From positions 1 to 39,517 of the forward strand of contig JAYUAL010000438.1 in assembly GCA_043741355.1 (NCBI GenBank): 39,517 nucleotides of DNA, in the 5' to 3' direction. Under the pieces are notes generated by a model that saw only the letters and a program-made list of their open reading frames with translations, had not been told where the DNA came from and searched no databases. Below, one piece after another: positions 2,667-31,195 of this stretch (positions are counted from its first letter, which is position 1; each line of letters begins with the position of its first letter). The translations under genes and the position numbers were made by a program. Source of the stretch: Gemmatimonadales bacterium. GTDB taxonomy: Bacteria; Gemmatimonadota; Gemmatimonadetes; Gemmatimonadales; GWC2-71-9.

Positions 2667-2691
2667 GCCCGTACCGCGGCCTCAATGTGCG

Positions 2692-3751: not shown

Positions 3752-3768
3752 CCTCCTCTCGCGGGTAT

Positions 3769-3814: not shown

Positions 3815-3852
3815 CAGCACAATGCCGCGGTCTACCCCGCGCTGGAAGCTGC

Positions 3853-3876
3853 CAGCCGCGGGAGGTTGTGCGGCTG
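3853..3876 (-). terminator. Weak candidate stem-loop terminator after the EamA gene
   Basis: CAGCCGC (3853-3859) and GCGGCTG (3870-3876) form a 7-bp GC stem with a 10-nt loop about 13 nt downstream of the stop. There is no U-tract, so this is weak. Confidence 0.2.
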
Positions 3877-3888
3877 TGGCGCGAAGGA

Positions 3889-11729: not shown

Positions 11730-11814
11730 TTTGATCGGCCGGGCGAATCTATGCTGGTATCTTGTCCCGAGCACGCCGCTCTGCGCGATCGTCTGCGTTC
11801 CCCCGAGGCACTGC

Positions 11815-12819: not shown

Positions 12820-12857
12820 AGCTCGCTCCGCACGCACCCAATCAGGGAGGATGCTGT

Positions 12858-15797
12858 ATGAGGATCGATCGAAATACCATTGCGCTGCTTTACCGGCTGC
12901 TCGGGGCCGTCCTGGTGCTCGCCGTCCTGCCCGCGGTGAAACCGCTGGCGGCCCAGACCACCACCGGCAGCATTCGGGGCTATATCCGGGGCGATAACGG
13001 CTCGCCGCTGGTCGCCGCCGAGGTCAGGGCCAGGAGCCTGGCGACCGGCAGCGCTCGCGTGGCGACCACCAATACGAAGGGGTTCTTCGCCCTCTCCGGC
13101 CTGGTCCCCGGGTCCTACGCCATCGAGGTGCGCAGCATCGGTTTCAAGCCGAGCGGGCGGACGGAGCGGGTCCAGATCGGTCAGGACCTGACCCTCGACT
13201 TTACCCTCCTGGCCTCGGCGGTGCAGCTGGAGGAGATCTCGGTGTCGGCGGCCCCCGCGGTGGAGACCCGTTCCACCGAGGTGGCGACCAACGTAGCCCC
13301 GACCCAGGTCGAGAATCTTCCCAAGTCGGACCGGAACTTCCTGGCCCTGGCGGTGCTGGCGCCGGGAGTGCGGCTCACGGGGGACCGGATCGGCGATACC
13401 AGGAAGACCATCAGCGCCGGCGCGCAGGGGGCCGAGCAGATCAACGTGTTCATCGACGGGGCCAGCTACAAGAACGACATCCTCAAGGGCGGGGTGGCTG
13501 GCCAGGACGCCAGCCGCGGCAATCCGTTCGCGCTGAACGCGGTGCAGGAATTCCGGGTCATTACCCAGAACTACAAGGCGGAGTACCAGAAGGCCTCCAG
13601 CGCGATCATCACCGCCACGACGAAATCGGGCGGTAATACCTGGACCGGGAACGCCTTCTTCGCCTATCAGAACAAGAGCTTGGTGGGGCTGGACACCTTC
13701 CAGCTTCGCGACAAATTCATCGCCGATAGTATCGCCAAGAAGAACACCACTCCTTCGACCTTCCGTAAGCCCGACTACAACCGATCCCTGGTCGGCTTCA
13801 GCGCAGGTGGGCCGCTCGTGAGGAACAAGCTGTTCTTTTTCGGGTCCTACGAAGGGAACTACCAGAACCGGTCCAACCGGGTCAGCATCGTCCCGCCGAC
13901 CGGCTTCCCGGCGCTCGACACCATCAATTTTGCCAAGTACAACGGCGATTTTGGCTCTCCCTTCCGGTCTTCGCTCTTCTTCGGGAAGTTGAGCTACGCC
14001 GCGAGCCCGACCTCCTCGATGGAGCTGAGCCTCAATACCCGCGCGGAGAACGATATCCGGGACTTCGGCGGACTCAGCGCCTTCAGCACCGCCACCCGTT
14101 TCAAAAACGCGGTCACCACGGGGCTCCTCAAGCACAGCTATTTCAAGGGAACCTGGCTCAACGAAGCGCTGTTGTCGTACCAGCGGTATCACTACAACCC
14201 GGTGGCCGCCAACCCCGATCAGGTCAACCGATTCTTCGGCTTCGGTTGCTGCGCGCAGATCGGGGGGAACATCTCCAACCAGGATTTCACCCAGAAGCGG
14301 CTGTCTTTGCGTGACGATCTGACCTACTCCGGGCTGCAGATGGCCGGCGCGCACGTACTCAAGGGCGGTCTCAACGTCGATTTCAGCCGCTACGACGTCA
14401 TCAAGCAGAACTCGGAGAATCCCCGCTTCGTCTACGAGTCGTGGTTCAACAACTTCGGATTCCCGCAGCGGGTGGAGTTCCAGGCCGGCGATCCGAACCT
14501 CAAGACCAAGAACACTCAGTTGGGCGCGTACCTGCAGGACGACTGGAGTCCTTCGGACCGGCTGACCTTCTATCTAGGTGCCCGCTGGGACTACGAATCG
14601 GGTGCGATCAACACGAAGTACGTCACCCCCCGGGACGTGGTCGACTCGCTCACGAAGTATCAGAGCCGGCTCTTCCGGCCCCTGGAGCCCAACCGCTACT
14701 TCACCGACGGCACCAAGCGGAGCGCCTATCTGGGCGCCTTCCAGCCGCGGGTCGGTTTCTCCTACGGGATCACCCGGGACAACCGTACCACCGTGTTCGG
14801 CAGCGTCGGACTCTTCTACGACCGCACCCTCTTCGACCTGGCCACGGAGGAGAAATTCGCGCTGCAGCACCCCGGCTACAACATCCAGTTCTACCCCACG
14901 GGGGGTCCCGCCGAGGCGGGCAAGGCCGAGTGGAAAAACTCGTATCTCTCGGGCCGGGCGGCTGCCAACGCACTCATCGCCGGCCGGGCCTTCAACACCC
15001 GGGAAATCAAGTTGCTTCCCAATGACCTCAAGCCTCCCAAGTCCACCCAGTTCAGCGCGGGGGTGCGGCAGCTCCTCGGCGATTTTGCGGTGGAGCTGGC
15101 GTACAACGGGGTCCGAAGCAACAACACCTTCACCTTCTACTGGGCCAACCAGAACTTCACCTGCCCGCAGCGCTCGTTCGGCGTGGCGGGGTGCTTCGTC
15201 TCCAACCAGATCCCCGGGTTCGGCACGGTGCTCTTCGCGGACAATACCGGGAAGACCTGGTACGATGCGGCTACCCTGAAGGTCGATCGCGCGTTCCGGT
15301 CGGGCCCAAAATTCGGGTGGGGAGGCGGAATCGCATACACCCTGGCCAGGCGGCAAACCCAGGGGTTCAACGACGATTTCAGCTTCCCCAATCCGGCCGA
15401 CTATCCCAAGCAGGTCCGTAACGACGAGCGGCACCGGGTGGTGGCCAACTGGGTGATCGGGATGCCGTCCGTCTTCAACATCTTCTTCAGCGGCATCGCC
15501 ACCGTCGGCAGCGGCACCAACATCGACGTGGGCGACCGTTTTGGCGGCACCGGTAACCCTCTGATTCCCGGGGGCTTCAACGCGCCCACCTACAAGATGC
15601 TCGACCTCCGTCTCAAGAAGGATTTCGTGTTCGGGCGGTCGCGCTTCGGATTGAGCATCGACGGGTTCAACGTCCTGAACAGTCAGAACCTCGGGTGCTA
15701 CAATACCGGCAACCCGGCCGATGGAGGTTTCGGCAAGGCCGGCTGCACCATTTCCGACCCGCGCCGGGTCCAGTTCGGGCTCGACCTCGGTTTCTAG
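12858..15797 (+). CDS. TonB-dependent outer-membrane receptor with N-terminal carboxypeptidase-regulatory-like domain
   Basis: GGGAGG lies upstream of ATG 12858 and the protein has a signal peptide. A CarboxypepD_reg-like segment is present (GSIRGYI...GFFALSGLVPGSYAIEVRSIGF), followed by a plug-like region. The 979-aa protein ends in ...FGLDLGF, a terminal aromatic residue. Confidence 0.9.
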   Translation: MRIDRNTIALLYRLLGAVLVLAVLPAVKPLAAQTTTGSIRGYIRGDNGSPLVAAEVRARSLATGSARVATTNTKGFFALSGLVPGSYAIEVRSIGFKPSGRTERVQIGQDLTLDFTLLASAVQLEEISVSAAPAVETRSTEVATNVAPTQVENLPKSDRNFLALAVLAPGVRLTGDRIGDTRKTISAGAQGAEQINVFIDGASYKNDILKGGVAGQDASRGNPFALNAVQEFRVITQNYKAEYQKASSAIITATTKSGGNTWTGNAFFAYQNKSLVGLDTFQLRDKFIADSIAKKNTTPSTFRKPDYNRSLVGFSAGGPLVRNKLFFFGSYEGNYQNRSNRVSIVPPTGFPALDTINFAKYNGDFGSPFRSSLFFGKLSYAASPTSSMELSLNTRAENDIRDFGGLSAFSTATRFKNAVTTGLLKHSYFKGTWLNEALLSYQRYHYNPVAANPDQVNRFFGFGCCAQIGGNISNQDFTQKRLSLRDDLTYSGLQMAGAHVLKGGLNVDFSRYDVIKQNSENPRFVYESWFNNFGFPQRVEFQAGDPNLKTKNTQLGAYLQDDWSPSDRLTFYLGARWDYESGAINTKYVTPRDVVDSLTKYQSRLFRPLEPNRYFTDGTKRSAYLGAFQPRVGFSYGITRDNRTTVFGSVGLFYDRTLFDLATEEKFALQHPGYNIQFYPTGGPAEAGKAEWKNSYLSGRAAANALIAGRAFNTREIKLLPNDLKPPKSTQFSAGVRQLLGDFAVELAYNGVRSNNTFTFYWANQNFTCPQRSFGVAGCFVSNQIPGFGTVLFADNTGKTWYDAATLKVDRAFRSGPKFGWGGGIAYTLARRQTQGFNDDFSFPNPADYPKQVRNDERHRVVANWVIGMPSVFNIFFSGIATVGSGTNIDVGDRFGGTGNPLIPGGFNAPTYKMLDLRLKKDFVFGRSRFGLSIDGFNVLNSQNLGCYNTGNPADGGFGKAGCTISDPRRVQFGLDLGF

Positions 15798-15852
15798 AGT
15801 CCGGGGGGCGAGGGGCACCGGGATCCTGCGGCGCCCTTCGCTACCCTTCGGC

Positions 15853-17295
15853 ATGCCCCGACTCCCGCTCATCCCCTCCCCATCGGGCTCGGCCTGGCCA
15901 GCGCTGGCCCTGTCGCTGCTCTTCGCCTGCGGCGGGTCGGTCCCCACGACGGCTCCGCCACCGGCAGCGCCGCGGATTCAGGCGCTGCTCGACACCGTGC
16001 AGCAACGCACCTTCAACTTCTTCTGGGAGCGGACCGAGGCCGCCACCGGCCTCACGCCGGATCGCTGGCCCACGCCGTCGTTCTCGAGCATTGCGGCCGT
16101 CGGGTTCGCCCTCACCGCCTATCCGATCGGCGTCGAGCAGGGCTACGTGACGCGTAGCGCCGCAGCGAATCGGGTGCTCACGACGCTGCAATTCTTCTAT
16201 CAATTGCCCCAGGGCCCTGGGACGTCCGGCATCGGCGGCTATCAGGGCTTCTTCTATCATTTTCTCGATATGTCTAGCGGGCTCCGATACCAAACGGTGG
16301 AGTTGTCCAGCATCGACACGTCGTTGCTCATGGCAGGGGTCTTGTTCTGCCAACAGTACTTCGACCGAGCCGACTCCGCCGAGGCCGCGATTCGGGCCTA
16401 CGCCGACTCACTGTACCGCCGGGTGGATTGGCGTTGGTTCCAGCCGCGGCCGCCGCTGCTATCGCACGGCTGGAGCGAGGAAGGCTTTAACAACCTCGAT
16501 TGGCGCGGCCTGGATGAGGCGATGATTATCTACATCCTCGCGCTCGGATCGCCGACCCACGCCGTCGACCCCGCAGCTTGGAACGCCTGGGCCGCCACCT
16601 ACCAATGGGGTGATTTCTATAGCCAGCCCCACGTTGGCTTCGCCCCGCTCTTCGGCCATCAGTACACCCAAATCTGGGTGGATTTCCGGGGCATCGCCGA
16701 CGACTACATGCGGAGCAAGGGGATCGACTACTTCGAGAATTCCCGCCGCGCCACCTACGCGCAGCGCGGCTACGCCATCGCCAACCCCAACGACTGGGAC
16801 GGCTACGGGGCGGCGATTTTCGGCCTCTCTGCAGCGGACGGTCCCCGGGACGTGACGCTGACCGTACGCGGCCGTCCCCGCCGCTTCTTCAGCTATGCCG
16901 CGCGCGGCGCCTCGTTCACCGAGGTGCGCGACGACGGCACCATCGCCCCCACCGCAGCGGCGAGTTCGATCCCCTTCGCGCCGGAGATCGTCGGACCCGC
17001 GCTGGTGGCCATGCGGGAGCGCTATGGCGACGGCCTGTTCGGGCAGTACGGATTCTTCGACTCATTCAATCCCACCTGGCAGTGGGCGCAACCGGCACCC
17101 CAGTATGGGCGCTATCTGCCGGGAAAGGGCTGGTTCGACACTGATTACCTGGGGATCGACCAGGGGCCGATCCTGGCGATGATCGCCAACTACCGGACCG
17201 AATTGGTGTGGAAGTACATGCGGAGGAGCCCCTACGTGATCCAGGGCCTCCGTCGGGCGGGCTTCAGGGGCGGCTGGCTCGACGCGGCACCATGA
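15853..17295 (+). CDS. GH144-like (COG5368 'glucoamylase-like'/DUF3131) lipoprotein; candidate endo-beta-1,2-glucanase
   Basis: Internal ATG at 15853. The lipobox is LLFAC. The region LLDTVQQRTFNFFWERTEAATGLTPDRWP...AAVGFALTAYPIG...GFFYHFLD...SSIDTSLLMAGVLF resembles the (alpha/alpha)6 GH144 family as I remember it. The assignment has not been verified by a search. Confidence 0.6.
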   Translation: MPRLPLIPSPSGSAWPALALSLLFACGGSVPTTAPPPAAPRIQALLDTVQQRTFNFFWERTEAATGLTPDRWPTPSFSSIAAVGFALTAYPIGVEQGYVTRSAAANRVLTTLQFFYQLPQGPGTSGIGGYQGFFYHFLDMSSGLRYQTVELSSIDTSLLMAGVLFCQQYFDRADSAEAAIRAYADSLYRRVDWRWFQPRPPLLSHGWSEEGFNNLDWRGLDEAMIIYILALGSPTHAVDPAAWNAWAATYQWGDFYSQPHVGFAPLFGHQYTQIWVDFRGIADDYMRSKGIDYFENSRRATYAQRGYAIANPNDWDGYGAAIFGLSAADGPRDVTLTVRGRPRRFFSYAARGASFTEVRDDGTIAPTAAASSIPFAPEIVGPALVAMRERYGDGLFGQYGFFDSFNPTWQWAQPAPQYGRYLPGKGWFDTDYLGIDQGPILAMIANYRTELVWKYMRRSPYVIQGLRRAGFRGGWLDAAP

Positions 17296-18596
17296 GAGGA
17301 CGCAAGGACGCAAGGATGCAAGGACGCAAGGTTGAAGCCGTTCCTCGCTTTGCGTCTTTGCGTCTTTGCGTCTTTGCGTCTTTTCTGGGAGCCTGCACCG
17401 CCACCGACGACTCAACGCTCCGCTTCTGGGCCTTCGGGCGCGAGGGCGAAGTGGTGCAGGAGCTGGCCCACGACTTCGAGCGCGAGCACCCGGGGGTCCG
17501 AATACGGGTCCAGCAGATTCCCTGGAGCGCGGCGCACGAGAAGCTCCTCACTGCTATCGTGGGACGCGCCTCTCCCGACATCGCGCAGATGGGCAATACC
17601 TGGATTCCGGAGATGGTCACCCTGGGCGCGCTCGCTCCGCTCCCATTCAAGCTCGCCAACAGTAGCTACTTCCCCGGCATCGTGGCCACCAACATCGTTG
17701 ACGACACGCTCTACGGGCTTCCCTGGTACGTGGACACCCGAGTGCTTTTCTACCGGAAGGACATCCTCGCCAAGGCAGGCTATCGCACCATGCCGGAGAG
17801 CTGGGCCGGCTGGCGCGAAGCGATGCTGGCGATCAAGCGAACGGCAGGGCCCGGACGCTACGCCATCTTCCTGCCGATGAACGAGTGGCCGCCACTGGCG
17901 ATCCTCGGGCTGCAGGCCGGCTCGCCGCTGGTCACCGAGCAGGGCTTCGGCGCCTTCCGGCAGCCGGCCTTCTCCCAAGCCTTCGACTTCCTGCTGTCGC
18001 TCTATCGCGACGGCCTCGCTGCTCCGGTCAGCAGTAACGAAATCGCGAATCTCTACCAAGAGTTTTCTCGCGGCACCTTCGCGATGTACATCTCCGGCCC
18101 CTGGAATCTGGGAGAGTTCCGCCGCCGGCTCCCCCCTGAGCAGCAGAACGCCTGGGGCACCGCGGCGCTGCCCGGTCCAACCGGCCCCCAGTCGGGCGTG
18201 TCGCTGGCCGGCGGCTCCAGCCTGGTGGTGTTCCGGTCCTCGCGCCACCAGGCGCTCGCGAATGAGCTGGTCGAGTATCTCTCCCGGCCCGAGCAGCAGG
18301 CCCGGTTTTACCGACTCACCGGCGATCTTCCCGCCCGCCGTGAGGCCTGGGCCGACTCCGCGCTGGCCCAGGACCGCGAGGCGGATGCCTTCCGGATCCA
18401 GCTCGAGCGCGCGGTTCCGACGCCGATGGTGCCGGAGTGGGAGGAAGTCACCACGAAGTTGATGGACCACGTCGAGGCGGCGGTGCGAGGCGGCCAGGCG
18501 CCCGCCGCGGCACTGGCGGCGCTCGATGGCGACGTGGACCGGCTGCTGGAGCGGCGCCGCTACCTCAAAAGCCGCCGCGCCGGCGGCGCGCCATGA
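17292..18596 (+). CDS. ABC transporter extracellular solute-binding lipoprotein (CUT1/family 1 sugar SBP)
   Basis: The start is ATG 17292 (ATGA overlap with the upstream stop) or ATG 17316. The lipobox is FLGAC. The family-1 SBP body includes LRFWAFG...IPWSAAHEKL...GNTWIPE...LPWYVDTRVLFYRKD. Confidence 0.85.
   Translation: MRGRKDARMQGRKVEAVPRFASLRLCVFASFLGACTATDDSTLRFWAFGREGEVVQELAHDFEREHPGVRIRVQQIPWSAAHEKLLTAIVGRASPDIAQMGNTWIPEMVTLGALAPLPFKLANSSYFPGIVATNIVDDTLYGLPWYVDTRVLFYRKDILAKAGYRTMPESWAGWREAMLAIKRTAGPGRYAIFLPMNEWPPLAILGLQAGSPLVTEQGFGAFRQPAFSQAFDFLLSLYRDGLAAPVSSNEIANLYQEFSRGTFAMYISGPWNLGEFRRRLPPEQQNAWGTAALPGPTGPQSGVSLAGGSSLVVFRSSRHQALANELVEYLSRPEQQARFYRLTGDLPARREAWADSALAQDREADAFRIQLERAVPTPMVPEWEEVTTKLMDHVEAAVRGGQAPAAALAALDGDVDRLLERRRYLKSRRAGGAP
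17294..17385 (+). repeat. Inverted arrays of 8-nt tandem repeats: (GGACGCAA)x4 and (CTTTGCGT)x4, forming a 38-bp stem with a 16-nt loop
   Basis: I paired 17294-17331 with 17348-17385 base by base. This gave 31 Watson-Crick pairs plus 7 G.U pairs and no mismatch. The structure spans the GH144 stop and both candidate starts of the solute-binding-protein gene. Confidence 0.85.
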
Positions 18597-19486
18597 CCAT
18601 GCGCGAAGGGCGGACGGAATCGCGGGCCGGCTGGGGATTCGTGACGCCCGCGCTCCTCCTGATCGGGGTGTTCTTCGCCATCCCCGTGGCGAGCGCCTTC
18701 CTGCTCTCCTTCACCGACTTCGACATCTACTCGATCGGTGATGTTGCCAGCACCCGCTTTATCGGCCTCAAGAACTACCGTGACCTGGCGGCGATGCCGC
18801 TCTTCTGGACCGCGCTCAAGAACACCATATTTTTCGTGGTGGTAGGGGGGCCGCTGTCCGCGGCCGCCTCGCTCGCCGCGGCGCTGATGGTCCACTCGAA
18901 GCTGACCCGTTTCAAGCCCTTTTTCCGGAGCGCCTTCTTTGCGCCCTGGGTGACGACGCTGGTAGCCGTGGCCCTGGTGTGGCGTTACATCTACCACCCC
19001 CAGTACGGCCTCCTCAACGCAGCCCTCGGCCATCTGGGCATCGGACCGGTCGACTGGCTGGGCAATCCCCACTGGGCCATGCCCTCGATCATTCTCCTCT
19101 CGGTCTGGAAAAACTTCGGCTACAACATGCTGGTGTTCCTCGCGGGGCTCGCCAGCATTCCGGAGGAACTCTACGAGGCCGCCGCGCTGGACGGGGCGGG
19201 GGCCTGGCACCGTTTCCGCCACATCACGCTGCCGATGCTTGGCCCGACGTTCGTGTTCGTGGGCGTGGTGACGATGATCGCATCGTTCCAGATATTCAGT
19301 GAGCCCTACGTCATGACCCAGGGAGGGCCGCTTAAGAGCACCACGACGCTGGTGCTGCTGATGTACGAACAGGGGTTCCGCTGGTGGCGCCTGGGTCTTT
19401 CGGCCGCTATCGCGGTGGTGCTGTTTCTGCTGACCCTGGGTGGCACGCTGATCCAGCTCCGGCTCCAGCGGCGCGGCGCGAAGTGA
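18593..19486 (+). CDS. ABC sugar transporter permease (MalF/UgpA-like)
   Basis: ATG 18593 overlaps the SBP stop (ATGA). The protein has six hydrophobic segments and the EAA loop EAAALDGAGAWHRFRHITLPML. Confidence 0.9.
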   Translation: MTMREGRTESRAGWGFVTPALLLIGVFFAIPVASAFLLSFTDFDIYSIGDVASTRFIGLKNYRDLAAMPLFWTALKNTIFFVVVGGPLSAAASLAAALMVHSKLTRFKPFFRSAFFAPWVTTLVAVALVWRYIYHPQYGLLNAALGHLGIGPVDWLGNPHWAMPSIILLSVWKNFGYNMLVFLAGLASIPEELYEAAALDGAGAWHRFRHITLPMLGPTFVFVGVVTMIASFQIFSEPYVMTQGGPLKSTTTLVLLMYEQGFRWWRLGLSAAIAVVLFLLTLGGTLIQLRLQRRGAK

Positions 19487-20304
19487 GGATCCGCTGGAAG
19501 GTCCTGGGCTTCAACGCGATGCTGCTGGTGGCGGCGTTTCTCGCCGCGGCGCCGCTGCTGTGGATGATATCAGCGTCGTTCATGCGAGGTGGCGAAGCAA
19601 ACACCTCGCCCCCGCCCCTGCTGCCGGGGCATCCGACGCTCGAGCACTACCGGGCGCTGTTTACCGGCCTGAACTTGGGCCGCTATTTCCTCAACAGCCT
19701 CGGCATCGCGCTGGGCGGCACCGTCCTGGCGGTGCTGATCACCGCAATGGCCGGGTACGCCTTCGCCAAGCTGCGCTTCCGGGGCCGGGACTCGCTATTC
19801 CGCGCGCTGTTGGCCGGCATGGTCATTCCCGGGCAGGTGGCGATGCTGCCGATGTTCATCCTCCTCCGCGAGATGGGGCTGATCAACACCCTTTTCGGCG
19901 CCATGGTGCCGGTGCTGGCACCGATCTACGGAATCTTCCTGGTACGCCAGTACGCACTGTCCATTCCGGACGACTTGCTCGACGCGGCGCGCCTGGACGG
20001 GGCCAGCGAGTTTCACATCTTCCGCGCGGTGGTGTTGCCGGCGATCACCCCGGTGCTCGCTACGCTTGGCGTTTTCTCGTTCCTGAGTGCGTGGAATGAT
20101 TTCATGTGGCCCCTCATCGTGCTGAGCGACGACGCCCACTACACCCTGCCGGTGGCACTCGCCAACCTGGCGGGCGAACATGTGCAGGACGTGGAGCTGA
20201 TGATGGGTGGGGCGGTGGTGACGGTGCTGCCGGTCTTCCTCGCGTTCCTGTTCCTGCAGCGCCACTACATCCAGGGCATCATGGCGGGCAGCGTGAAGGG
20301 ATGA
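19483..20304 (+). CDS. ABC sugar transporter permease (MalG/UgpE-like)
   Basis: GTG 19483 overlaps the upstream stop (GTGA). An alternative start is ATG 19519. The EAA loop is DAARLDGASEFHIFRAVVLPAITP. Confidence 0.9.
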   Translation: MRIRWKVLGFNAMLLVAAFLAAAPLLWMISASFMRGGEANTSPPPLLPGHPTLEHYRALFTGLNLGRYFLNSLGIALGGTVLAVLITAMAGYAFAKLRFRGRDSLFRALLAGMVIPGQVAMLPMFILLREMGLINTLFGAMVPVLAPIYGIFLVRQYALSIPDDLLDAARLDGASEFHIFRAVVLPAITPVLATLGVFSFLSAWNDFMWPLIVLSDDAHYTLPVALANLAGEHVQDVELMMGGAVVTVLPVFLAFLFLQRHYIQGIMAGSVKG

Positions 20305-23300
20305 GCGGTCTCCTGCTGCTCGCGCTGGCGCAGGCCGTCGGGCCCGCCGCCCCAATACTGTTAGATGACTTTGTGCACCCCGAAGCCTGGTCGGCCCATC
20401 CCGCCGACGGCGTGCTGCTCACCCTCGTCGGCGATCGCGGGAGGAGCGGCAAGGCGCTCCGTCTCGATTTTTCGTTTGCCGGCGGCGGCGGGTATGCCAT
20501 CGCGCGCCGGGCCACCGCGATAGATCTGCCGCCGAACTACGCCTTCTCGTTCTGGATCAAGGGCGAGGCCCAGCCTAACACGCTCGAATTCAAGCTTCTC
20601 GACCGTACTGGCGACAACGTCTGGTGGTACACCGAGCCGGACCTTGTCTTCGACGGACAGTGGCACAAGATCACCGTGCGCAAGCGGCAGATCAGGTTTG
20701 CCTGGGGGCCGCAGGGAGGGGGGCCATTGGGGCACGTGGCCGCCATCGAGCTGGTGATCACCGCCGGACGGGGCGGGGGTTCGGGTCGAGTCTGGTTCGG
20801 CCAATTGGCGCTCATCCCGATAGTCGATGTGGGGCCCTACGCTCTCACCCCCAAGGTGACCGCGTCCTCGGCGCTGCCGGGGCACTCGGCCGCAGCCCTC
20901 CTCGATGGCGACACGACCACCAGCTGGCGCGCCGCCGCTCCCCGCGCCTCCTTCACGATCGACTTCCTCCGTCGGAGGGAATACGGCGGGCTGACGCTGG
21001 TTTGGGATAGATATGCTCCCGCGAACTACGCGGTGCGGACCTCGGACGACGGCACCCGGTGGCGCAGGGTTGCGCGGCGGCCCGGGGGAGCTGGCACCCG
21101 CGACTACCTCTACCTCCCCGAGACCGAATCCCGTTTTCTCCGCTTCGACCTGCTGGGAAGCCGGGGTAACGTGGGCCTCCGCGAGGTCCGGATCGAGCCG
21201 CTGGAATGGTCCGCGTCACGCAACGCCTTCTTCAGCGCCATCGCCGCTGACGCGGCACGAGGTACCTACCCTCGCTATTTCAGCGGTGAGCGGGCCGATT
21301 GGACGGTGGTAGGCGCGGACGGCGCGGTCGAGGAGGCGCTGCTCAGCGAAGACGGTGCCATCGAGTTGGGCACCGGCGCGTGGAGCGTCGAGCCGTTCGT
21401 ATTGGTCGGGGGGGGGCTGCTGACCTGGAATGATGTGCGCACCACCCCTTCGCTCGAGCGGTCCAGGCTCCCGATACCCTCGGTCGAGTGGCGCGCCGGG
21501 GATTTGTCGCTCACGGTCACGGCGTTCGCGGTGGGAAGCGACACCGGCTCGAGCGTCGTCGCGCGCTACCGGGTCCGCAACCTGGGGCGCGGACTCCTCC
21601 GCGGGACGCTCTACCTGGCCATCCGCCCGTTCCAGGTGAACCCGCCCTGGCAGTTCCTCGGCACGCCCGGGGGAGTGTCCCGGGTGGACTCGCTGCGCTG
21701 GGATGGCACAACCGTGCGCGTCAACGCCGATCGTGCGGTGATTCCCCTCACCGCTCCGGCATCGTTCGGTGCCACGCCCTTCGGTGCCGGCGATGTCGTC
21801 ACCCAGCTGCGTGAGGGAATCCTTCCGGCCCGACGGTTCGCGCATGATTCGCTGGGCAACGCTTCCGGCGCGCTGGCCTGGCCGCTCCGGCTCGCGGCCG
21901 GCGATTCGGCCACGATGGCGATCGAGATTCCGCTTGGGTCGGGGCGCTCGTCCCGGCTGCCGGTCGCGGGGATGGCCGGAGTGGACCGGGCCTTTGCCGC
22001 TACTGTGGCCGGCTGGACCGAGACCGTGGATCGGGCCACCATCGTGCTCCCGCCGGCGGGCCGGCATGTGGCCAACACCATCGCCAGCACCCTGGGGTAC
22101 ATCCTCATCAACCGCGACGGCCCCGCTCTACAACCGGGCTCCCGCTCCTACCAGCGCTCCTGGATCCGCGACGGCGCTCTCACCGGTGCTGCGCTGCTCC
22201 GGTTTGGACACGCGGACGCGGTCCGGGACTTCATCCGCTGGTATGCCGGATACCAATACCCCAATGGAAAGATTCCCTGCTGCGTGGACCGGCGCGGCGC
22301 CGACCCGGTGCCTGAGCACGACAGCCACGGCGAGTTCATCTACCTGGTGATGGAATACTTCCGCCACACCGGCGATCGCGCGCTGCTCACCGAGATGTGG
22401 CCCCGGGTAAAGGCCGCGGTGGGCTACATCGATGCTCTGCGGCAGACCCGTCGCACCCCGCAGTACCAGACGGGGGCCCAGCGGGTGTTTTACGGCCTGC
22501 TGCCTCCCTCGATCAGCCACGAGGGCTACTCCGCGAAGCCGATGCACTCGTACTGGGATGATTTCTTCTCGCTGCGGGGCTTGAAGGATGCCACTGCGAT
22601 GGCCGGAGTTCTCGGACTCGAAGCCGAAGCGGCATCGATCGGTGCGCTCCGCGACGAGTTTGCCCACGACCTCTACGCCTCGATTGCACTGGTCATGACG
22701 CAGCACAAAATCGACTACATCCCGGGAGCCGCCGACCTGGGAGACTTCGACGCCACCTCGACCACGATCGCGGTAACGCCCGGCGGAGAGCTCGGTACAC
22801 TGCCCCAGGCGGCGCTCGAGCGGACCTTCGAGCGGTACTGGCAGCATGCCAACGCCCGGCGAGACACCGCCGACAAGTGGGATGCATACACCCCCTATGA
22901 GCTGCGCACCGTGGGCACGCTGCTCCGGATGGGGCAGAAGGAGCGAGCGCTCGATTTGCTCGACGGCTTCATGAGAGACCAGACACCGCCCGCCTGGAAC
23001 CAGTGGCCCGAGGTCGTCTGGCGCGAGCCGAGGGCTCCCAAATTCATCGGCGACGTGCCACATACCTGGGTCGGCTCGGACTTTCTCCGCAGCGTATCAG
23101 ACCTCGTTGTGTATGAGCGCGAGGCTGACAGCGCATTGGTGATTGCCGAGGGCATCCCGGAGTCGTGGCTCGCGGACGCCGGTGTTGCGGTGAACCGGCT
23201 CAGCACCTGGTGGGGACCGATATCCTACACCGCGCGGCGCCAGGGAATCGTGGTAACGGTCAGCATCGCCGCCGGACTCCGGATTCCCCCGGGCGGACTC

Positions 23301-23426
23301 CTGATTCATCCCCCCGGCTCCCGGCCCGTGTTCCGGGCTACGGTGAACGGCGCGCCGGTGGCCCTGGGCGTCGGCGGAGCAGTTGTGATCCGCTCGGTGC
23401 CGGCAAGCATCAGCTTCGAGCGATGA
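20301..23426 (+). CDS. Large multi-domain protein of unassigned family: N-terminal CBM-like beta-sandwich, F5/8 type C (discoidin) domain, beta-sandwich, C-terminal (alpha/alpha)6 glycoside-hydrolase-like barrel
   Basis: ATG 20301 overlaps the permease stop (ATGA). The N-terminus MSGLLLLALAQAVG is hydrophobic. LLDGDTTTSWRAA...YAVRTSDDGTRW is discoidin-like. SYQRSWIRDGALTGAALLRFGH...EHDSHGEFIYLVMEYFRHTGD is a six-hairpin GH15/GH78-like motif style. Confidence 0.65.
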   Translation: MSGLLLLALAQAVGPAAPILLDDFVHPEAWSAHPADGVLLTLVGDRGRSGKALRLDFSFAGGGGYAIARRATAIDLPPNYAFSFWIKGEAQPNTLEFKLLDRTGDNVWWYTEPDLVFDGQWHKITVRKRQIRFAWGPQGGGPLGHVAAIELVITAGRGGGSGRVWFGQLALIPIVDVGPYALTPKVTASSALPGHSAAALLDGDTTTSWRAAAPRASFTIDFLRRREYGGLTLVWDRYAPANYAVRTSDDGTRWRRVARRPGGAGTRDYLYLPETESRFLRFDLLGSRGNVGLREVRIEPLEWSASRNAFFSAIAADAARGTYPRYFSGERADWTVVGADGAVEEALLSEDGAIELGTGAWSVEPFVLVGGGLLTWNDVRTTPSLERSRLPIPSVEWRAGDLSLTVTAFAVGSDTGSSVVARYRVRNLGRGLLRGTLYLAIRPFQVNPPWQFLGTPGGVSRVDSLRWDGTTVRVNADRAVIPLTAPASFGATPFGAGDVVTQLREGILPARRFAHDSLGNASGALAWPLRLAAGDSATMAIEIPLGSGRSSRLPVAGMAGVDRAFAATVAGWTETVDRATIVLPPAGRHVANTIASTLGYILINRDGPALQPGSRSYQRSWIRDGALTGAALLRFGHADAVRDFIRWYAGYQYPNGKIPCCVDRRGADPVPEHDSHGEFIYLVMEYFRHTGDRALLTEMWPRVKAAVGYIDALRQTRRTPQYQTGAQRVFYGLLPPSISHEGYSAKPMHSYWDDFFSLRGLKDATAMAGVLGLEAEAASIGALRDEFAHDLYASIALVMTQHKIDYIPGAADLGDFDATSTTIAVTPGGELGTLPQAALERTFERYWQHANARRDTADKWDAYTPYELRTVGTLLRMGQKERALDLLDGFMRDQTPPAWNQWPEVVWREPRAPKFIGDVPHTWVGSDFLRSVSDLVVYEREADSALVIAEGIPESWLADAGVAVNRLSTWWGPISYTARRQGIVVTVSIAAGLRIPPGGLLIHPPGSRPVFRATVNGAPVALGVGGAVVIRSVPASISFER

Positions 23427-26400
23427 GCGCCGGGCATCTGCTCACCAACGGGCGCTATCGCGTCCTCGTCACTCCGTCCGGCGCCGGGTACTCGGCGCTG
23501 GGTGAGGTTTTGCTCACCCGCTGGACCGCCGACACCACCCGGGAGCCCGACGGCTGGTTCCTCTACGTCCGTGACCTCGAGACCGGGCGGATCTGGTCCG
23601 GCGGCCACCAGCCGGTCCAGCGTCCGCCGGATCGCTATGAGTTTCGCGCTGCGGACGGCCGGGTTAGAATCGAGCGCGAGGACTCTGGTATCGAAGTCGT
23701 CACCGAGATCGCGGTGGCCCAGGATGTCGACGTCGAGTGGCGCCGCTACACCGTTGTCAACCGGAGCGGCGGGCGGCGGCGTCTCGAGCTGACCACCTGC
23801 GCCGAAGTGGTCCTCAATACCCCCGCGGCCGATGCAGGCCATCCGGCGTTCTCCAAACTGTTCGTGCAGACGGAGTTTCTGCCCGGGCACGCTGCCCTGC
23901 TGGCCTGGCGGCGTCCGCGGAGCCCCGAGGAGGTTTCGCTCTTCGTGGGGCACGCGCTGTGGGGAGGCGGCCTTGCCACCGCCGGGCTCGAATGGGAAAC
24001 CGACCGGGCCCGGTTCATCGGGCGGGGGCGCACGCTGGGCACTCCTCACGCATTGATGTCCTTGGATCCGCTGTCCGGCACGGTTGGCAACGTGCTGGAT
24101 CCACTTTTCTCCCTCCGGCGCATCGTCGAGCTCGCGCCCGGTGCCTCGATACGGCTGGAAGGCGTGCTCGCCGCCGGGAGTGACCGCGGCGTGGTGGAGG
24201 TCCTGCTCACCGCCGCGCGCGAACCGGGCGCCTCCGATGCGGCTTTCCCCGCCCACGCCGAGCTCGGGCCGGCCACACGCCTTGCCGAATCGGCGGCACT
24301 CCTGTTCCGGCCCGCGCCCGCGGTCCTGGCCATGGCGCCGTGCACTGAGCCACTCCGGTTCTTCAACGGCTACGGAGGCTTTTCAGAGCGAGGCGACGAA
24401 TATGTGGTCCGGCTCGATCGCTCGGTCGATGAGCTGCGCCGCCCGCCGCTTCCCTGGGGCAACATCGTCGCCAACGAGGAGGCGGGCTTCGTAGCCACGG
24501 AGAGCGGGCTCGGCTTCACCTGGAGCGGAAACAGCCGGGAGAATCGCCTCACCCCCTGGTATAACGATCCGGTCTGCGATCCGGTAGGAGAGGCGGTGTA
24601 CATCCGCGAGGAGGAGGCCGGCCTCTACTGGTCACCGACCCCGGCCCCGGTTCCCGGATCGGGTGGGTACGAAGCCCGTCACGGATTCGGCCACACCTCG
24701 TGGCGGCACACCAGCCGGAACCTGGAGCAGGAGGTTCTCTGCTTCGTCCCGAAGGACGCCCCGGTCAAGATCGTCCGCATTAGGATCACCAACCAGAGCG
24801 CCGTCCCGCGCCATCTCTCTATTTTCTATTTTGCGGAATGGGTCCTTGGTACGCTGCGCTCGGAGGCGAAAGGAGCCGTGACCATCGAAGCAGTCGATGC
24901 TGGAGCGATCCTCCTGGCGAGGAATCCGGGAAGCGCAGACTTCGGAAAGCAGGTCTCCTTTGCCGCTGCCACCGGGCCCGACGAGGAAGGGAGACACTTC
25001 TCGGGTGACCGCGCCGCATTCCTCGGACGCTACGGCAGCGCAGCGGCCCCGGCCGGGGTTGGCGCGCGCCACACCCTCGATGGGCGGAGCGGCGCCGGCC
25101 TCGATCCCTGCGCGGCGTTCCAACTCCGTGCCGCGCTCGCGCCCGGCGCCACCGGGGAGTGGACTTTCCTCTTGGGCCAGACCGAGGGGCACGATGAGGC
25201 ACTGGCGCTCTGCCGGCGGTTCGGAGGCGCCGACGCTATCCAGCAGGCGTTCGAGGGAGTTGGCGCATTCTGGCGGGAGCTCCTCTCCGCCGTGCAGATC
25301 GAGACGCCATCACCCGCAATGGACGTGATGGTGAACGGATGGCTCACCTATCAGAACCTGAGCTGCCGGATGTGGGCCCGGTCGGCGCTCTATCAGTCCG
25401 GCGGCGCCTTCGGGTTCAGGGACCAGCTGCAGGACGCCGCGGCCCTGCTGTACCACCGGCCCGCACTCACCCGGGAGCAAATCGTTCTCCACGCCGGCCA
25501 CCAGTTCGTCGAGGGCGACGTGCTGCACTGGTGGCACCGGCCCTCCGGCCGGGGGATCCGTACCCGGTTCTCTGATGACCTGCTCTGGCTTCCGTTCATC
25601 ACCGAGTTCTACGTCGCCGCGACCGGCGATTCCAGCGTGCTTGAGGAGCCGGTCCGATTCCTCACCGCCCCTCCGCTCGAGGAGGGCGAGGATGAAACCC
25701 TGCTCGTCCCTCTGGACGCCGGAACGCCCGCCGATGTGTACGAGCATTGCTGCCGCGCGATCGACCGCTCGCTCACCCGCGGCAGTCACGGGCTCCCCCT
25801 GATGGGCAGCGGCGACTGGAACGACGGGATGAACCGGGTGGGGCGGTTGGGGCGGGGCGAGAGCGTCTGGCTCGGCTTCTTCCTCTATAAGATATTGCAG
25901 CGCTTCATTCCACTATGTCGAGCTCGCGGCGATGCAGCCCGCGCCGGCCGGTATGAAAGTTACCGGTCCGGCCTGTACCCAGCCCTCAACACGGCCGGCT
26001 GGGACGGAGAGTGGTACCGTCGCGCCTACTACGACGACGGCTCCCCGATGGGAGCAAAGGAGAGCGACGAATGCCGAATCGACGCACTGGCGCAGGCCTG
26101 GGCCGTGCTGTCCGGAGCGGCGGCGCCGGAACGCGCTGCCCAGTCCCTGGATGCCGTGGATCGCTACCTGGTGGATGAACCGGCGGGCTTGATTCGTTTG
26201 CTGACACCCCCCTTCGACCATACCCCGCGCGATCCCGGCTACATCAAAGGCTACCTCCCGGGCGTACGGGAGAACGGCGGCCAGTATACTCACGCGGCGC
26301 TCTGGGCCGTGCGGGCGCTGGCCGAGGCAGGCCGGCACCACCGCGCCGCCCATCTGTTCGACCGGCTCAATCCGGTGCACCACGGTGATACGCCGGAAAC

Positions 26401-26824
26401 GATCGAGGTCTACCGCGCCGAGCCGTATGTCGTGGCCGCGGACGTCTATGGCGTGGCGCCCCACCGCGGGCGGGGAGGCTGGACCTGGTACACCGGCTCG
26501 GCGGGGTGGATGTTCCGGGTGGCGCTGGAATCCATCCTCGGGCTCTCCATCGAGGCAGGAAGCACGCTGGTGCTCTCTCCATGCATCCCCGCGGAATGGC
26601 CCGGGTTCTCGGTGCGGTACCGGCTCCCCGATGGCCGCACCCACTATGAGATCGTCGTGAGCCGAACCGCCGGGCCCACTGCGGCGCGCGGGTCGGGCCT
26701 CGTGGTGCGGGTTACCGATGGCGTGGTGCGGGTTGAGCTCCGGAGCGACGGGGGGGTACACCGGGTCGAGGTGGAGCTCGGCAACGACGCCGGCCCCCGC
26801 TACCGGCCGTCCGGCGGGCCCTGA
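23423..26824 (+). CDS. GH94 glycoside phosphorylase, full length (1133 aa); candidate 1,2-beta-oligoglucan phosphorylase
   Basis: ATG 23423 overlaps the upstream stop (ATGA). It carries the GH94 motifs [36 protein letters not shown] and WYTGSAGW. There is no signal peptide. It is considerably longer than cellobiose/chitobiose phosphorylases. Confidence 0.8.
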   Translation: MSAGHLLTNGRYRVLVTPSGAGYSALGEVLLTRWTADTTREPDGWFLYVRDLETGRIWSGGHQPVQRPPDRYEFRAADGRVRIEREDSGIEVVTEIAVAQDVDVEWRRYTVVNRSGGRRRLELTTCAEVVLNTPAADAGHPAFSKLFVQTEFLPGHAALLAWRRPRSPEEVSLFVGHALWGGGLATAGLEWETDRARFIGRGRTLGTPHALMSLDPLSGTVGNVLDPLFSLRRIVELAPGASIRLEGVLAAGSDRGVVEVLLTAAREPGASDAAFPAHAELGPATRLAESAALLFRPAPAVLAMAPCTEPLRFFNGYGGFSERGDEYVVRLDRSVDELRRPPLPWGNIVANEEAGFVATESGLGFTWSGNSRENRLTPWYNDPVCDPVGEAVYIREEEAGLYWSPTPAPVPGSGGYEARHGFGHTSWRHTSRNLEQEVLCFVPKDAPVKIVRIRITNQSAVPRHLSIFYFAEWVLGTLRSEAKGAVTIEAVDAGAILLARNPGSADFGKQVSFAAATGPDEEGRHFSGDRAAFLGRYGSAAAPAGVGARHTLDGRSGAGLDPCAAFQLRAALAPGATGEWTFLLGQTEGHDEALALCRRFGGADAIQQAFEGVGAFWRELLSAVQIETPSPAMDVMVNGWLTYQNLSCRMWARSALYQSGGAFGFRDQLQDAAALLYHRPALTREQIVLHAGHQFVEGDVLHWWHRPSGRGIRTRFSDDLLWLPFITEFYVAATGDSSVLEEPVRFLTAPPLEEGEDETLLVPLDAGTPADVYEHCCRAIDRSLTRGSHGLPLMGSGDWNDGMNRVGRLGRGESVWLGFFLYKILQRFIPLCRARGDAARAGRYESYRSGLYPALNTAGWDGEWYRRAYYDDGSPMGAKESDECRIDALAQAWAVLSGAAAPERAAQSLDAVDRYLVDEPAGLIRLLTPPFDHTPRDPGYIKGYLPGVRENGGQYTHAALWAVRALAEAGRHHRAAHLFDRLNPVHHGDTPETIEVYRAEPYVVAADVYGVAPHRGRGGWTWYTGSAGWMFRVALESILGLSIEAGSTLVLSPCIPAEWPGFSVRYRLPDGRTHYEIVVSRTAGPTAARGSGLVVRVTDGVVRVELRSDGGVHRVEVELGNDAGPRYRPSGGP

Positions 26825-26825
26825 T

Positions 26826-28178
<1,353 letters not shown>

Positions 28179-28195
28179 CGGCGAAGGACATCCCC

Positions 28196-29284
<1,089 letters not shown>

Positions 29285-29854: not shown

Positions 29855-31195
29855 TCAGGGGGGAGTGACGATCCCGAGAGGCTCCGTGGTCCTCCAACGA
29901 CCACGGGTAAAGTCGGGAACTTGGATCGGTCGGCTGCCGGCCTTGTTGGAGATCTCGGTCAGCGGGCCCACTACGCTCCACGCCGCCGCATCGTAGACGT
30001 TCTGATCGGTGGGAAGTCCTTCGCGCAGGCAGGTGATCAGCCGCCAGTCCTCCAGCCAGTCCATTCCACCGTGTCCGACTTTCGCGTTGAGGACACTGTC
30101 CTTTCTCCAGAGCGGATGGTCGTGGCTCTCGAACCACTGGGCCGCCGGATCCCAGCGGTCTTCCCCTTTGCTCATCCCCTCCACGTAGACCCGCTGCGGG
30201 TAGCCTTCCACCAGCCCCTTGGTGCCCTGGAGGACGTACTTCCTGCTGTAGGGACGGGGCAGGTTGGTGTCGTGGGTGACGTAGATCGTCTGGCCCAGAA
30301 CCGTGCGAATCAGGGTCGCGTTGACGTCGCCGAGCACGTACCGCTCGTTGCGGCGCGGGTCGCCGGCGGCCAGATGTTCGGCTTGCCAGCGCTGTAGCCC
30401 GCGGGAAGGGCCGCTCACCGAGGTCAAGTAGTCGAACTGATTCCCCCGGTTGATGCTCATTGCCTGGGAAACCGGCCCCAGCCCGTGGGTCGGGTAGAGA
30501 TTGCCGTTTCGCCGGGTGGCGTGGGCCCGGCGCCAGAGGCCCTCGCCTTCATTGCTGAACTTGATGCTCCGGAGATCGTGATTGTAGCCGCACTCTCCGT
30601 GCATCAGCTCGCCGAGAATCCCCCGCCGAGCCAGATGGAAGGCCAGCATCTCGAGCCTGTCGTAGCAGCAGTTCTCCATCATCACACAGTGCTTCTGGTA
30701 CTTTTCCGCTGCCTCCACCAGGGCCCAGCAGTCGTCCACGGTATATGCGATCGGCACCTCGGAGGCGGAGTGCTTGCCGTGCCGCATCGCGGCCAGGCAG
30801 ATCGGGACGTGCCACTCCCAAGGCGTGGCGTTGAAGACGAGATCGAGCTCCTCCTCGGCGCACAACCGCTCGAAGTCCCGCGGGCCCCTGGTATAGGCCT
30901 TCGGCTCGGGCCGTCCCGCGGCGACGATTTTCTGCTGCCACCCGGCGACTTTTTCGGGGACGATGTCGCAGAGCGCGGTGATCTCGACCCCGTCCAGCGC
31001 CAGCAGATTTTCGACGTGACTGCTGCCCTGGCCTCCCACACCGACGAATCCGATCCGGACCCGATCCATGGGGGCGGCGCGGTAGAGCAGGGTGGCCTGT
31101 TGGGGGAGCGGGGAACGGGGAGCCGGGAGCGGGAGGGCGCCCGCAGCCGCCGCCGCGACAGACTCCCTGAGGAATTCTCTGCGAGAAGTATCCAT
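29855..31195 (-). CDS. Tat-exported Gfo/Idh/MocA-family NAD-dependent oxidoreductase, GH109-like
   Basis: The twin-arginine motif is SRREFLR. The Rossmann N-terminus is RIGFVGVGGQGSSHV. The central segment HCVMMENCCYDRLEMLAFHLARRGILGELMHGECGYNHDLR resembles GH109-type proteins. Confidence 0.7.
   Translation of the reverse strand: MDTSRREFLRESVAAAAAGALPLPAPRSPLPQQATLLYRAAPMDRVRIGFVGVGGQGSSHVENLLALDGVEITALCDIVPEKVAGWQQKIVAAGRPEPKAYTRGPRDFERLCAEEELDLVFNATPWEWHVPICLAAMRHGKHSASEVPIAYTVDDCWALVEAAEKYQKHCVMMENCCYDRLEMLAFHLARRGILGELMHGECGYNHDLRSIKFSNEGEGLWRRAHATRRNGNLYPTHGLGPVSQAMSINRGNQFDYLTSVSGPSRGLQRWQAEHLAAGDPRRNERYVLGDVNATLIRTVLGQTIYVTHDTNLPRPYSRKYVLQGTKGLVEGYPQRVYVEGMSKGEDRWDPAAQWFESHDHPLWRKDSVLNAKVGHGGMDWLEDWRLITCLREGLPTDQNVYDAAAWSVVGPLTEISNKAGSRPIQVPDFTRGRWRTTEPLGIVTPP
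31102..31137. repeat. Degenerate GGGGAGC heptamer array (about 4-5 units) inside the 5' coding region of the GH109-like gene
   Basis: The units read directly are GGGGAGC (31103), GGGGAAC (31110), GGGGAGC (31117), CGGGAGC (31124) and GGGAGGG (31131). The array is complementary to the array at 31221-31269. Confidence 0.85.

Follow-up and report, generated by a model that had tools for sequence, protein, structure and literature searches.

A predicted five-domain protein conserved in beta-1,2-glucan loci is a candidate for a new glycoside hydrolase family

Here we describe a gene of 1041 amino acids (positions 20301-23426, + strand, stop codon included) in a 39,517-nucleotide contig of a Gemmatimonadales bacterium (JAYUAL010000438.1, assembly GCA_043741355.1; hereafter the window, meaning this whole stretch of DNA). 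The gene lies between a sugar permease gene and a glycoside hydrolase (GH) family 94 gene in a beta-1,2-glucan operon. Our favored reading, to which we assign a probability of roughly 0.45, is that the product is probably an exported (periplasmic), five-domain, inverting hydrolase of an uncharacterized family that is a conserved accessory of beta-1,2-glucan loci, the leading guess being that its target is a bond out of reach of the other enzymes. The parts of this reading differ in strength. It is likely that the protein is a true glycosidase with catalytic activity whose role is confined to the breakdown of beta-1,2-glucan. That it acts on an irregular bond and not on the plain beta-1,2 linkage is tentative, somewhat short of an even chance, and that this bond is specifically alpha-1,6 is more doubtful still.

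The target gene is genuine and not a chance open reading frame in high-GC DNA, since its homologs are very numerous and its AlphaFold2 (AF2) model is confident (mean predicted local distance difference test score (pLDDT) 90, predicted template-modeling score (pTM) 0.87). The frame is free of stops and has thousands of full-length homologs. A word-indexed search returned more than 6500 homologs at E<1e-3, and HMMER run against 1.8 billion representatives found 3783 clusters at E<1e-3 and 1174 clusters (50% identity) at E<1e-30, nearly all of them 1000-1100 residues long and aligned end to end. Translation and flanking sequence bore out the boundaries that an earlier note, made from the sequence of this DNA alone, had proposed, with an ATGA overlap at either end. 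At the start (20301-20304, +, GGATGAGC) the ATG overlaps the stop codon of the second permease gene (TGA, 20302-20304), and at the end (23423-23426, +, GCGATGAGC) the TGA at 23424-23426 overlaps the GH94 start codon at 23423. The four-nucleotide overlap at the start is likewise present in the relatives at loci L001-L003. A GTG start at 20106 was rejected because the resulting extension is rich in Arg, Gly and Pro and not protein-like, and because homologs begin at the overlapped ATG. The note had also called the product a stoichiometric member of its operon, a claim that goes too far, as an ATGA overlap alone does not imply stoichiometry. The sequencing runs that contain the gene are exclusively of sediment metagenome DNA, with no RNA runs among them.

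The AF2 model, built with 39 homologs as input, divides the protein into five domains. The first is an N-terminal beta-sandwich (residues 17-175; 20349-20825, on the + strand like every feature of the gene), delimited by AF2 strands, with W108, W135-G136, E96, K98 and D101 strongly conserved. Its likeness to carbohydrate-binding module (CBM) family 11 is weak (1v0a and 2lro matched residues 17-129 at E 0.006-0.008 in a profile search), and one homolog is labeled CBM11 by JGI. A CBM32 or F5/8 type C (discoidin) module follows (residues 180-300; 20838-21200). Pfam PF00754 matched residues 186-295 at E 1.7e-12 and 48 bits against a cut-off of 28.2, which places the module in CBM32, and the CBM32 structures 4zz5 and 2rva were matched by the target profile at E 2e-13. 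The third domain, an all-beta segment (residues 305-545; 21213-21935), is a beta-supersandwich as in bacterial GH15, GH65 and GH94, and in hhalign its residues 398-545 matched the terminal part of the supersandwich of GH94. A two-helix linker and an (alpha/alpha)6 catalytic barrel come next (residues 557-936; 21969-23108), recognized from AF2 helices and Foldseek; the barrel proper spans about residues 585-936 and reached a pLDDT of 89.9 when modeled alone. AF2 strands define a final C-terminal beta-sandwich (residues 937-1041; 23109-23423).

Pfam and AF2 thus agree with the two N-terminal modules (beta-sandwich and F5/8 type C) and the (alpha/alpha)6 barrel that the earlier note had recognized, and the two barrel motifs it quoted, WIRDGALTGAALL and EHDSHGEFIYLVMEYF, lie at residues 621-633 and 672-687. 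What its domain plan overlooked were the beta-supersandwich and the C-terminal beta-sandwich, and with these two the protein follows the general layout seen in GH15, GH65 and GH94 enzymes of bacteria. A domain-fusion search in longer family members turned up only extra CBM32 copies, an unassigned tail of 520 residues and one C-terminal alpha/beta-hydrolase (esterase) fusion. The family member P0228 (1292 residues) has such a C-terminus, with a DLH/Peptidase_S9/Abhydrolase_2 domain at residues 1160-1284. This fusion is at most a hint, from sequence, that the native glucans used as substrate might be acylated (succinyl or acetyl groups), and it could equally be a gene-call fusion.

Placement of the barrel was tested with Pfam, NCBIfam, PDB sequence profiles and Foldseek. 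The PDB profile searches used the single sequence, profiles of 39 and 45 sequences, and a 38-sequence barrel profile. They gave significant matches for the CBM32 module only and none for the barrel, for which the best entries were MmpH (7qsj, E 0.006-0.012) and then GH78 (2okx, 3cih), the glycogen debranching enzyme 7vma and GH15 (5z3e) at E>0.1. In Pfam the target matched the GH78 six-hairpin domain PF17389 at 21.3-23.8 bits (cut-off 24.5) and GDE_C, all below threshold, while some homologs exceed the PF17389 cut-off in precomputed lists. Across 38 barrels from many phyla, the weak Pfam matches were to GH78 (37 barrels, best E 2e-9), GDE_C (22), GH15 (21, best E 4e-5) and GH95 (4). NCBIfam returned a single match, to the GH15 oligosaccharide amylase model TIGR01577, at 29.6 bits against a cut-off of 820 (E 2.8e-7).

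Fold comparison pointed in several directions. With the full model, the top Foldseek ranks went to GH94 phosphorylases and to three GH15 enzymes, dextran dextrinase, glucodextranase and glucoamylase (E 6e-15 to 1e-10; template-modeling (TM) scores 0.44-0.60, 9-15% identity, 850-1100 columns), followed lower down by ExoMA2, GH116, GH78, GH95 and GH52. With the barrel alone, the matches were the GH15 isomaltose glucohydrolase, GH78, the GH15 dextran dextrinase, GH63 YgjK, MmpH, GH100 invertases and GH116 (E about 1e-7 to 1e-5, TM 0.53-0.68, 12-17% identity). Foldseek probability was 1.0 for GH15, GH94, GH78, GH63 and GH116. The known beta-1,2-glucanase families GH144, GH162, GH189 and GH192-194 (5gzh, 8xul, 6imu, 8wy1, 8xuj, 8xuk) were absent from the PDB profile lists, which extended to E 10, and from the top 50 Foldseek matches; GH186 was likewise absent from both kinds of list. 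A supersandwich followed by an (alpha/alpha)6 barrel, the hallmark of the six-hairpin superfamily, is present in the AF2 models and supported by Foldseek. The target family is best set within this superfamily, which also includes GH15, GH63, GH65, GH78 and GH94, at about equal distance from several of these families and belonging to none. This agrees with the earlier suggestion that the barrel could not be placed in a described CAZy family. Full-text literature on beta-1,2-glucan enzymes yielded no published characterization of this architecture, and in cultured Lysobacter, Luteimonas, Pseudoxanthomonas and Vulcaniibacterium carriers the gene is always annotated solely as "discoidin domain-containing protein".

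Conservation argues that the barrel is an active enzyme. We compared 45 sequences with identities down to 35% and, separately, the 38 barrels. Ten acidic residues are invariant in both sets (D624, E672, D674, E741, D753, D815, D817, E867, E904 and D918), as are Y617, R623, H740, Y743, W752, H921 and W923, and within the protein conservation is highest in the barrel (50-75% identity between phyla). Three clusters stand out. At the start of the second barrel helix, Y617-x3-W621-x-R623-D624 (22149-22172) is a candidate -1 subsite; Y617, R623 and D624 are invariant, W621 is present in at least 90% of sequences, and the segment aligns to GH94 FGFRD. The loop S737-I-S-H-E741-G-Y ... W752-D753-D754 (22509-22562), with S737, S739, H740, E741, G742, Y743, W752 and D753 invariant, would supply the general acid, either E741 or D753. 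A candidate general-base region (22899-23054) contains the invariant E867, E904 and D918, and E904 and D918 appear by topology to sit in the loop ahead of the last barrel helix, as the GH15 base does. We infer an inverting mechanism in which E741 or D753 would act as general acid and one of E904, E867 and D918 as general base.

Synteny ties the family to beta-1,2-glucan. A scan of one genome per species found at least 599 target loci, of which we examined the best 80. These came from Gemmatimonadota, Acidobacteriota, Eisenbacteria, Krumholzibacteriia, Binatia, Methylomirabilota and Alpha-, Beta- and Gammaproteobacteria, and further from Ignavibacteria/Bacteroidota, Fibrobacter, Verrucomicrobiota and Planctomycetota; cultured genera carrying the family include Lysobacter, Luteimonas, Duganella and Methylocaldum. 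Neighbors were counted by comparing the window's neighboring proteins with all open reading frames of the 80 loci, using the 36 loci whose flanks reach 8 kb or more in each direction and a distance of 10 kb for GH144 and GH94. GH144 was found in 27 of the 36, GH94 in 23 and the solute-binding protein (SBP) belonging to an ATP-binding cassette (ABC) importer in 28. Co-occurrence with GH144 or GH94 in other genomes, which the earlier note had proposed as a check, extends to 33 of the 36 loci and to many phyla. That note had named three outcomes that would count against a glucan-active hydrolase, namely a match to a characterized family with an unrelated substrate, a lack of conserved catalytic acids and a lack of co-occurrence with GH94/GH144; none of them was found, and about ten acidic residues proved invariant.

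The operon order of the window is repeated in Gemmatimonadota and Longimicrobiaceae. In the complete genome of Lysobacter auxotrophicus the order is LacI, TonB-dependent receptor, GH144, ABC importer and target; the operon ends with the target, with no GH94 or GH1 nearby. Several loci, including this one, have GH144 and the ABC system without GH94, which indicates that GH94 is not obligatory and that the core consists of receptor, GH144, importer and target. Other arrangements were seen as well. In seven loci (L025, L029, L036, L043, L045, L048, L049; Binatia, Competibacteraceae, Methylocaldum sp. GT1BB) an exported target homolog and a long cytoplasmic GH94 form an isolated pair among housekeeping genes (SMC, QueF, trigger factor, ClpP/ClpX), with no GH144 or ABC importer within 10 kb; such pairs may be involved in turning over periplasmic glucans that the cell itself has made. 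Loci L051, L052, L072 and L074 (Kryptoniota, Ignavibacteria, Bacteroidota) have a short GH94, two GH144 genes, the target, a gap of 3-5 kb, the SBP and two permeases, an order resembling the Ignavibacterium album SGL cluster from which a GH35 beta-1,2-glucosyltransferase was described (PMC8861115). In a Methylomirabilota metagenome-assembled genome (L066), two target paralogs lie within 10 kb (1235-5122, +, and 11742-15017, -).

The window locus itself is, by sequence homology, a beta-1,2-glucan utilization system. Its gene order is LacI, TonB-dependent receptor, GH144, SBP, two permeases, target, GH94, a convergent GH1 and a MalK-type ATPase. The LacI-family regulator (11731-12819, +; Pfam) keeps its position in relatives, and the outer-membrane receptor (12858-15797, +; CarboxypepD_reg plus beta-barrel by Pfam) shows conserved synteny. 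The GH144 endo-beta-1,2-glucanase homolog (15853-17295, +; PF10091, E 2e-76) is a lipoprotein with the lipobox LLFAC, and its start is probably 15853 and not 15721. It matches XcSGL (XCC2207, 8xul) at E 4.6e-169, an experimentally proven endo-beta-1,2-glucanase (PMC12102758). The ABC importer (17208-20304, +; Pfam) comprises a lipoprotein SBP (about 17208-18596; lipobox FLGAC) and permeases at 18437-19486 and 19384-20304; the SBP matches 3uor at E 8.5e-121 and the sophoro-oligosaccharide binder Lin1841 (5ysb) at E 1.9e-69. The likeness of GH144 to XcSGL and of the SBP to Lin1841 ties the locus to beta-1,2-glucan. The mechanical reading-frame starts of these two genes lie too far upstream (15721-15853 and 17208-17330); the likely N-termini, MPRLPL...LLFAC-GGS and ...SFLGAC-TAT, make both GH144 and SBP lipoproteins.

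Downstream of the target, GH94 (23423-26824, +; Pfam) encodes an 1133-residue phosphorylase of the beta-1,2-oligoglucan phosphorylase (SOGP) type without a signal peptide. In the PDB search it matched the GH94 domain of cyclic glucan synthase (7e-259), and the Lachnoclostridium SOGP was absent at E<=1e-10, a pattern that puts it in a synthase-domain-like branch and not in the Listeria/Lachnoclostridium SOGP branch. The convergent GH1 beta-glucosidase (26826-28319, -; PF00232, E 5e-158) has a counterpart in a GH1 enzyme that prefers sophoro-oligosaccharides, known from a comparable cluster (PMC12369401). A 496-residue open reading frame at 26718-28208 (+) was rejected as a high-GC shadow, being rich in Arg, Gly, Pro and His and without a Pfam match; the real gene there is GH1 on the - strand. 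A MalK/MsiK-type ABC ATPase (28196-29284, +; Pfam) follows. Elsewhere in the window, a second GH94 gene (4-2091, +; PF17167, E 1e-123) is cut by the 5' edge, so that at least two GH94 paralogs lie within 25 kb, and the locus is flanked by a 1249-residue Sortilin/BNR-repeat protein (6272-10021, -) and a GH109-like GFO/IDH/MocA oxidoreductase (29855-31195, -).

N-terminal sequences suggest that the target family is likely exported. A canonical Sec signal is present in most of the 45 representative homologs, about nine having no signal peptide, and clear signals or lipoboxes occur in many of the 80 loci, such as MKLFRILAAGLAAMLVSAAHA in Duganella, MNRRKLIKLLLGLACLVGFGLARA in Methylocaldum, and LAGGC or VGGC lipoboxes in Longimicrobia. 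In the target and the Gemmatimonadales proteins nearest to it, the N-terminus is shorter and without charge. That of the target, MSGLLLLALAQAVG (residues 1-14; 20301-20342), is a probable atypical signal peptide, with pLDDT below 50, residues 2-11 helical and no basic n-region. Export, which had been proposed from the hydrophobic N-terminus, is therefore well backed for the family by Sec signals and lipoboxes, whereas the target's own N-terminus is short and lacks a basic residue; export of this particular protein is probable. Location outside the cytoplasm speaks for hydrolysis over phosphorolysis.

What the hydrolase would contribute is suggested by the published pathway. Described beta-1,2-glucan enzymes comprise GH94 SOGP, GH3 and GH1 beta-glucosidases, endo- and exo-acting GH144, GH162, a GH35 transferase, GH186, GH189 and GH192-194 (PMC11842490 and PMC12369401 among other sources). 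The GH144 enzyme CpSGL degrades both linear and cyclic beta-1,2-glucans (10.1101/2025.04.21.649730; PMC11842490). The earlier note gave as an example the opening of cyclic glucans resistant to GH144, a role that is at odds with this result and unlikely for ordinary cyclic glucans; a narrower version, confined to alpha-1,6-cyclized glucans, survives. From these glucans, whose synthases are reported to be widespread, CpSGL plus a beta-glucosidase produce glucose and a "non-degradable glucopentaose" (10.1101/2025.04.21.649730). The undegraded limit glucopentaose implies a step without a known enzyme. The target family is a candidate for this step because it is likely exported, bears CBMs, is kept beside GH144 and has a barrel whose nearest solved neighbors are mostly inverting alpha-glucoside enzymes, including alpha-1,6-specific GH15 members.

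In the pathway that we propose, the TonB-dependent receptor would deliver to the periplasm beta-1,2-glucan that other bacteria have produced, for the most part in cyclic form, and the GH144 lipoprotein would there cleave beta-1,2 bonds. The CBM11-like and CBM32 modules of the target would hold the glucan while its barrel, with a -1 subsite formed by Y617, W621, R623 and D624, hydrolyzed a bond by single-displacement (inverting) acid/base catalysis. That bond would be the single alpha-1,6 junction of an alpha-1,6-cyclized beta-1,2-glucan, or of a limit pentasaccharide bearing the junction. The products would be imported via the sophoro-oligosaccharide ABC importer, and cytoplasmic GH94 (phosphorolysis) and GH1 (sophorose hydrolysis) would complete degradation. 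The full proposal, a new GH family that hydrolyzes the alpha-1,6 closure bond of alpha-1,6-cyclized beta-1,2-glucans of the Xanthomonas, Ralstonia and Cereibacter type, or the limit glucopentaose, is speculative, with perhaps one chance in four of being right.

Several observations weigh against our favored reading. The substrate is deduced from neighboring genes only. The structural neighbors are too distant to indicate specificity (TM 0.55-0.68, at most 17% identity) and include the beta-glucoside enzymes GH94 and GH116. The links to GH15 are weak, with a null hhalign result against fungal GH15 and a motif match at E 0.1, and the candidate catalytic residues were chosen by alignment and topology. 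The target's signal peptide is atypical, short and free of Lys and Arg, and about 9 of the 45 representative homologs have none. Many natural cyclic beta-1,2-glucans are free of alpha-1,6 bonds, although nearly all of the loci carry the gene. Finally, the target may already belong to a very recently assigned CAZy family.

The strongest competing explanation is that the protein is a beta-1,2-specific hydrolase acting on the same bond as GH144, either an exo-enzyme releasing glucose or sophorose or a second endo-glucanase, that trims the glucan to a degree of polymerization of 3-5 for the SBP. We consider this less likely than not, and about as likely as the alpha-1,6 proposal. A locus devoted to a single polymer commonly encodes more than one enzyme for the main linkage, the CBMs point to a polymer as substrate, and both the architecture and hhalign (probability 85%, E 6.6e-6) link the target to GH94, a beta-glucoside enzyme. 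In addition, five loci (Competibacteraceae, Methylocaldum, Binatia) have just the target and GH94, GH144 being absent within 10 kb, and in these loci depolymerization would have to fall to the target. However, GH144 alone depolymerizes linear and cyclic glucan, and a redundant enzyme of 1000 residues is unexpected beside it in 27 of 36 loci. Moreover, the nearest solved barrels belong mostly to alpha-glycoside enzymes, and the PDB profile and Foldseek lists showed no likeness to GH144, GH162, GH186, GH189 or GH192-194.

A glycoside phosphorylase or transglycosylase, related to GH94/GH65 or resembling dextran dextrinase and remodeling beta-1,2-glucan chains, is improbable. Such an activity would fit the best full-length fold matches, among which are GH94 phosphorylases and dextran dextrinase, a transglucosylase of GH15, the hhalign link to GH94, the correspondence by eye of T922-W923 to the phosphate-binding T-W motif of GH94, and the roughly 9 of 45 representatives without a signal peptide. 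Most members, however, are exported or carry a lipid anchor, an uncommon trait among phosphorylases; the phosphate-binding His of GH94 is replaced by Pro865, the invariant carboxylates E867, E904 and D918 lie where a base would be expected, and a true GH94 phosphorylase is encoded next door. Two further explanations are very hard to sustain. A non-catalytic capture protein that binds glucan for the receptor or importer through an inactive barrel would suit the two CBM-like modules and the fact that no activity is known for any family member, but about ten acidic and several aromatic and His residues in the barrel loops are invariant down to 35% identity, and the barrel is conserved above all other parts, which is typical of an active site. 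A substrate unrelated to beta-1,2-glucan, such as an alpha-L-rhamnoside, with the gene hitch-hiking in the operon, has in its favor that the GH78 rhamnosidase barrel is the most frequent weak Pfam match (best E 2e-9); these matches lie at or below the Pfam cut-off, however, and the association with GH144, GH94 and the sophoro-oligosaccharide importer spans Gemmatimonadota, Acidobacteriota, Proteobacteria, Ignavibacteria/Bacteroidota, Fibrobacterota and others despite changes in gene order.

In many Proteobacteria, cyclic and periplasmic beta-1,2-glucans act as factors in symbiosis, virulence and osmoregulation. Enzymes for their breakdown have been known only since 2014, and each founded a CAZy family (GH144, GH162, GH186, GH189, GH192-194). 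The target family is at least as widespread as the known beta-1,2-glucanase families and is fixed in a core operon of TonB-dependent receptor, GH144, ABC importer and target. Assigning its activity would probably establish a new GH family and would explain a conserved, unexplained gene of these loci. Should the alpha-1,6 proposal hold, it could supply the missing enzyme for the limit oligosaccharide and so make complete the known breakdown route of these glucans, which serve bacteria in virulence and osmoregulation, and an alpha-1,6-cleaving enzyme would serve as an analytical tool for beta-1,2-glucans.

How the target compares with known systems can be set out family by family. It has its pathway and gene clusters in common with the enzymes that act on beta-1,2-glucan and its oligosaccharides (GH144, GH162, GH189 and GH192-194 of clan GH-S, GH186, GH3/GH1 and GH35), but differs from them in showing no profile or Foldseek likeness. 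GH144, GH162, GH189 and GH192-194 are likewise (alpha/alpha)6 barrels. The commonest weak Pfam matches are the GH78 alpha-L-rhamnosidases (2okx, 4xhc, 8iwf) and the GH133/GDE_C amylo-alpha-1,6-glucosidase. These enzymes, like the target, are multi-domain proteins with beta-sandwich modules around a six-hairpin barrel; the target nevertheless scores at or below the gathering cut-offs, and its genomic context holds no hint of rhamnose or glycogen.

GH94 provides the best full-length Foldseek matches (E 6e-15, TM up to 0.59), and its gene often adjoins the target within a shared pathway. Comparing 45 diverse family members with 27 GH94 proteins from the same loci, hhalign gave the probability of 85% and E of 6.6e-6 over 460 columns. 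The alignment pairs an R-D, an S-x-W, a Y-T and a T-W-x-G-S motif: hhalign places target RSWIRDG over GH94 FGFRDQ, HSYW over ESVW and AYTPYE over QYTHAA, and by eye PEVVW corresponds to VEPYV and PHTWVGS to GWTWYTGS. The catalytic DWND loop of GH94 falls over LPPSIS in the invariant SISHEGY loop of the target, from which DWND itself is absent, and the phosphate-binding His of QYTHAA falls on Pro865 of AYTPYE. Identity is 10-13%, and the target has no PF17167 or PF06165 match, whereas the neighboring GH94 scores 415 and 464 bits. The GH94 partners, moreover, are cytoplasmic proteins without signal peptides, while the target family is likely exported.

In GH15 (1lf6, 1ug9, 5z3a/7c25, 9ju0; clan GH-L), as in the target, a beta-supersandwich precedes the (alpha/alpha)6 barrel and a W-[IL]-R-D-G motif opens the second barrel helix. 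The pairing of W-L-R-D-G in the isomaltose glucohydrolase 5z3e with W-I-R-D-G in the target is suggestive but falls short of significance (E 0.1). The target, too, could plausibly work through an inverting carboxylate pair. The invariant E741 and W752-D753 lie in the loop that would correspond to the acid loop of GH15, and E904 lies 18 residues ahead of the T-W helix. Identity to GH15 is 12-15%, PF00723 gave no match in the target and reached 21 of the 38 barrels at E 4.4e-5 or worse, and hhalign of the barrel profile against Aspergillus niger glucoamylase (landmark residues checked) gave an uninformative probability of 1.7%. The target also differs in lacking the WEE acid motif, in its extra CBM11-like and CBM32 modules, and in a context of beta-1,2-glucan and not starch or dextran. 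Set against these relatives, the target is a candidate for a new GH family whose fold class is already known, and not for a novel type of system.

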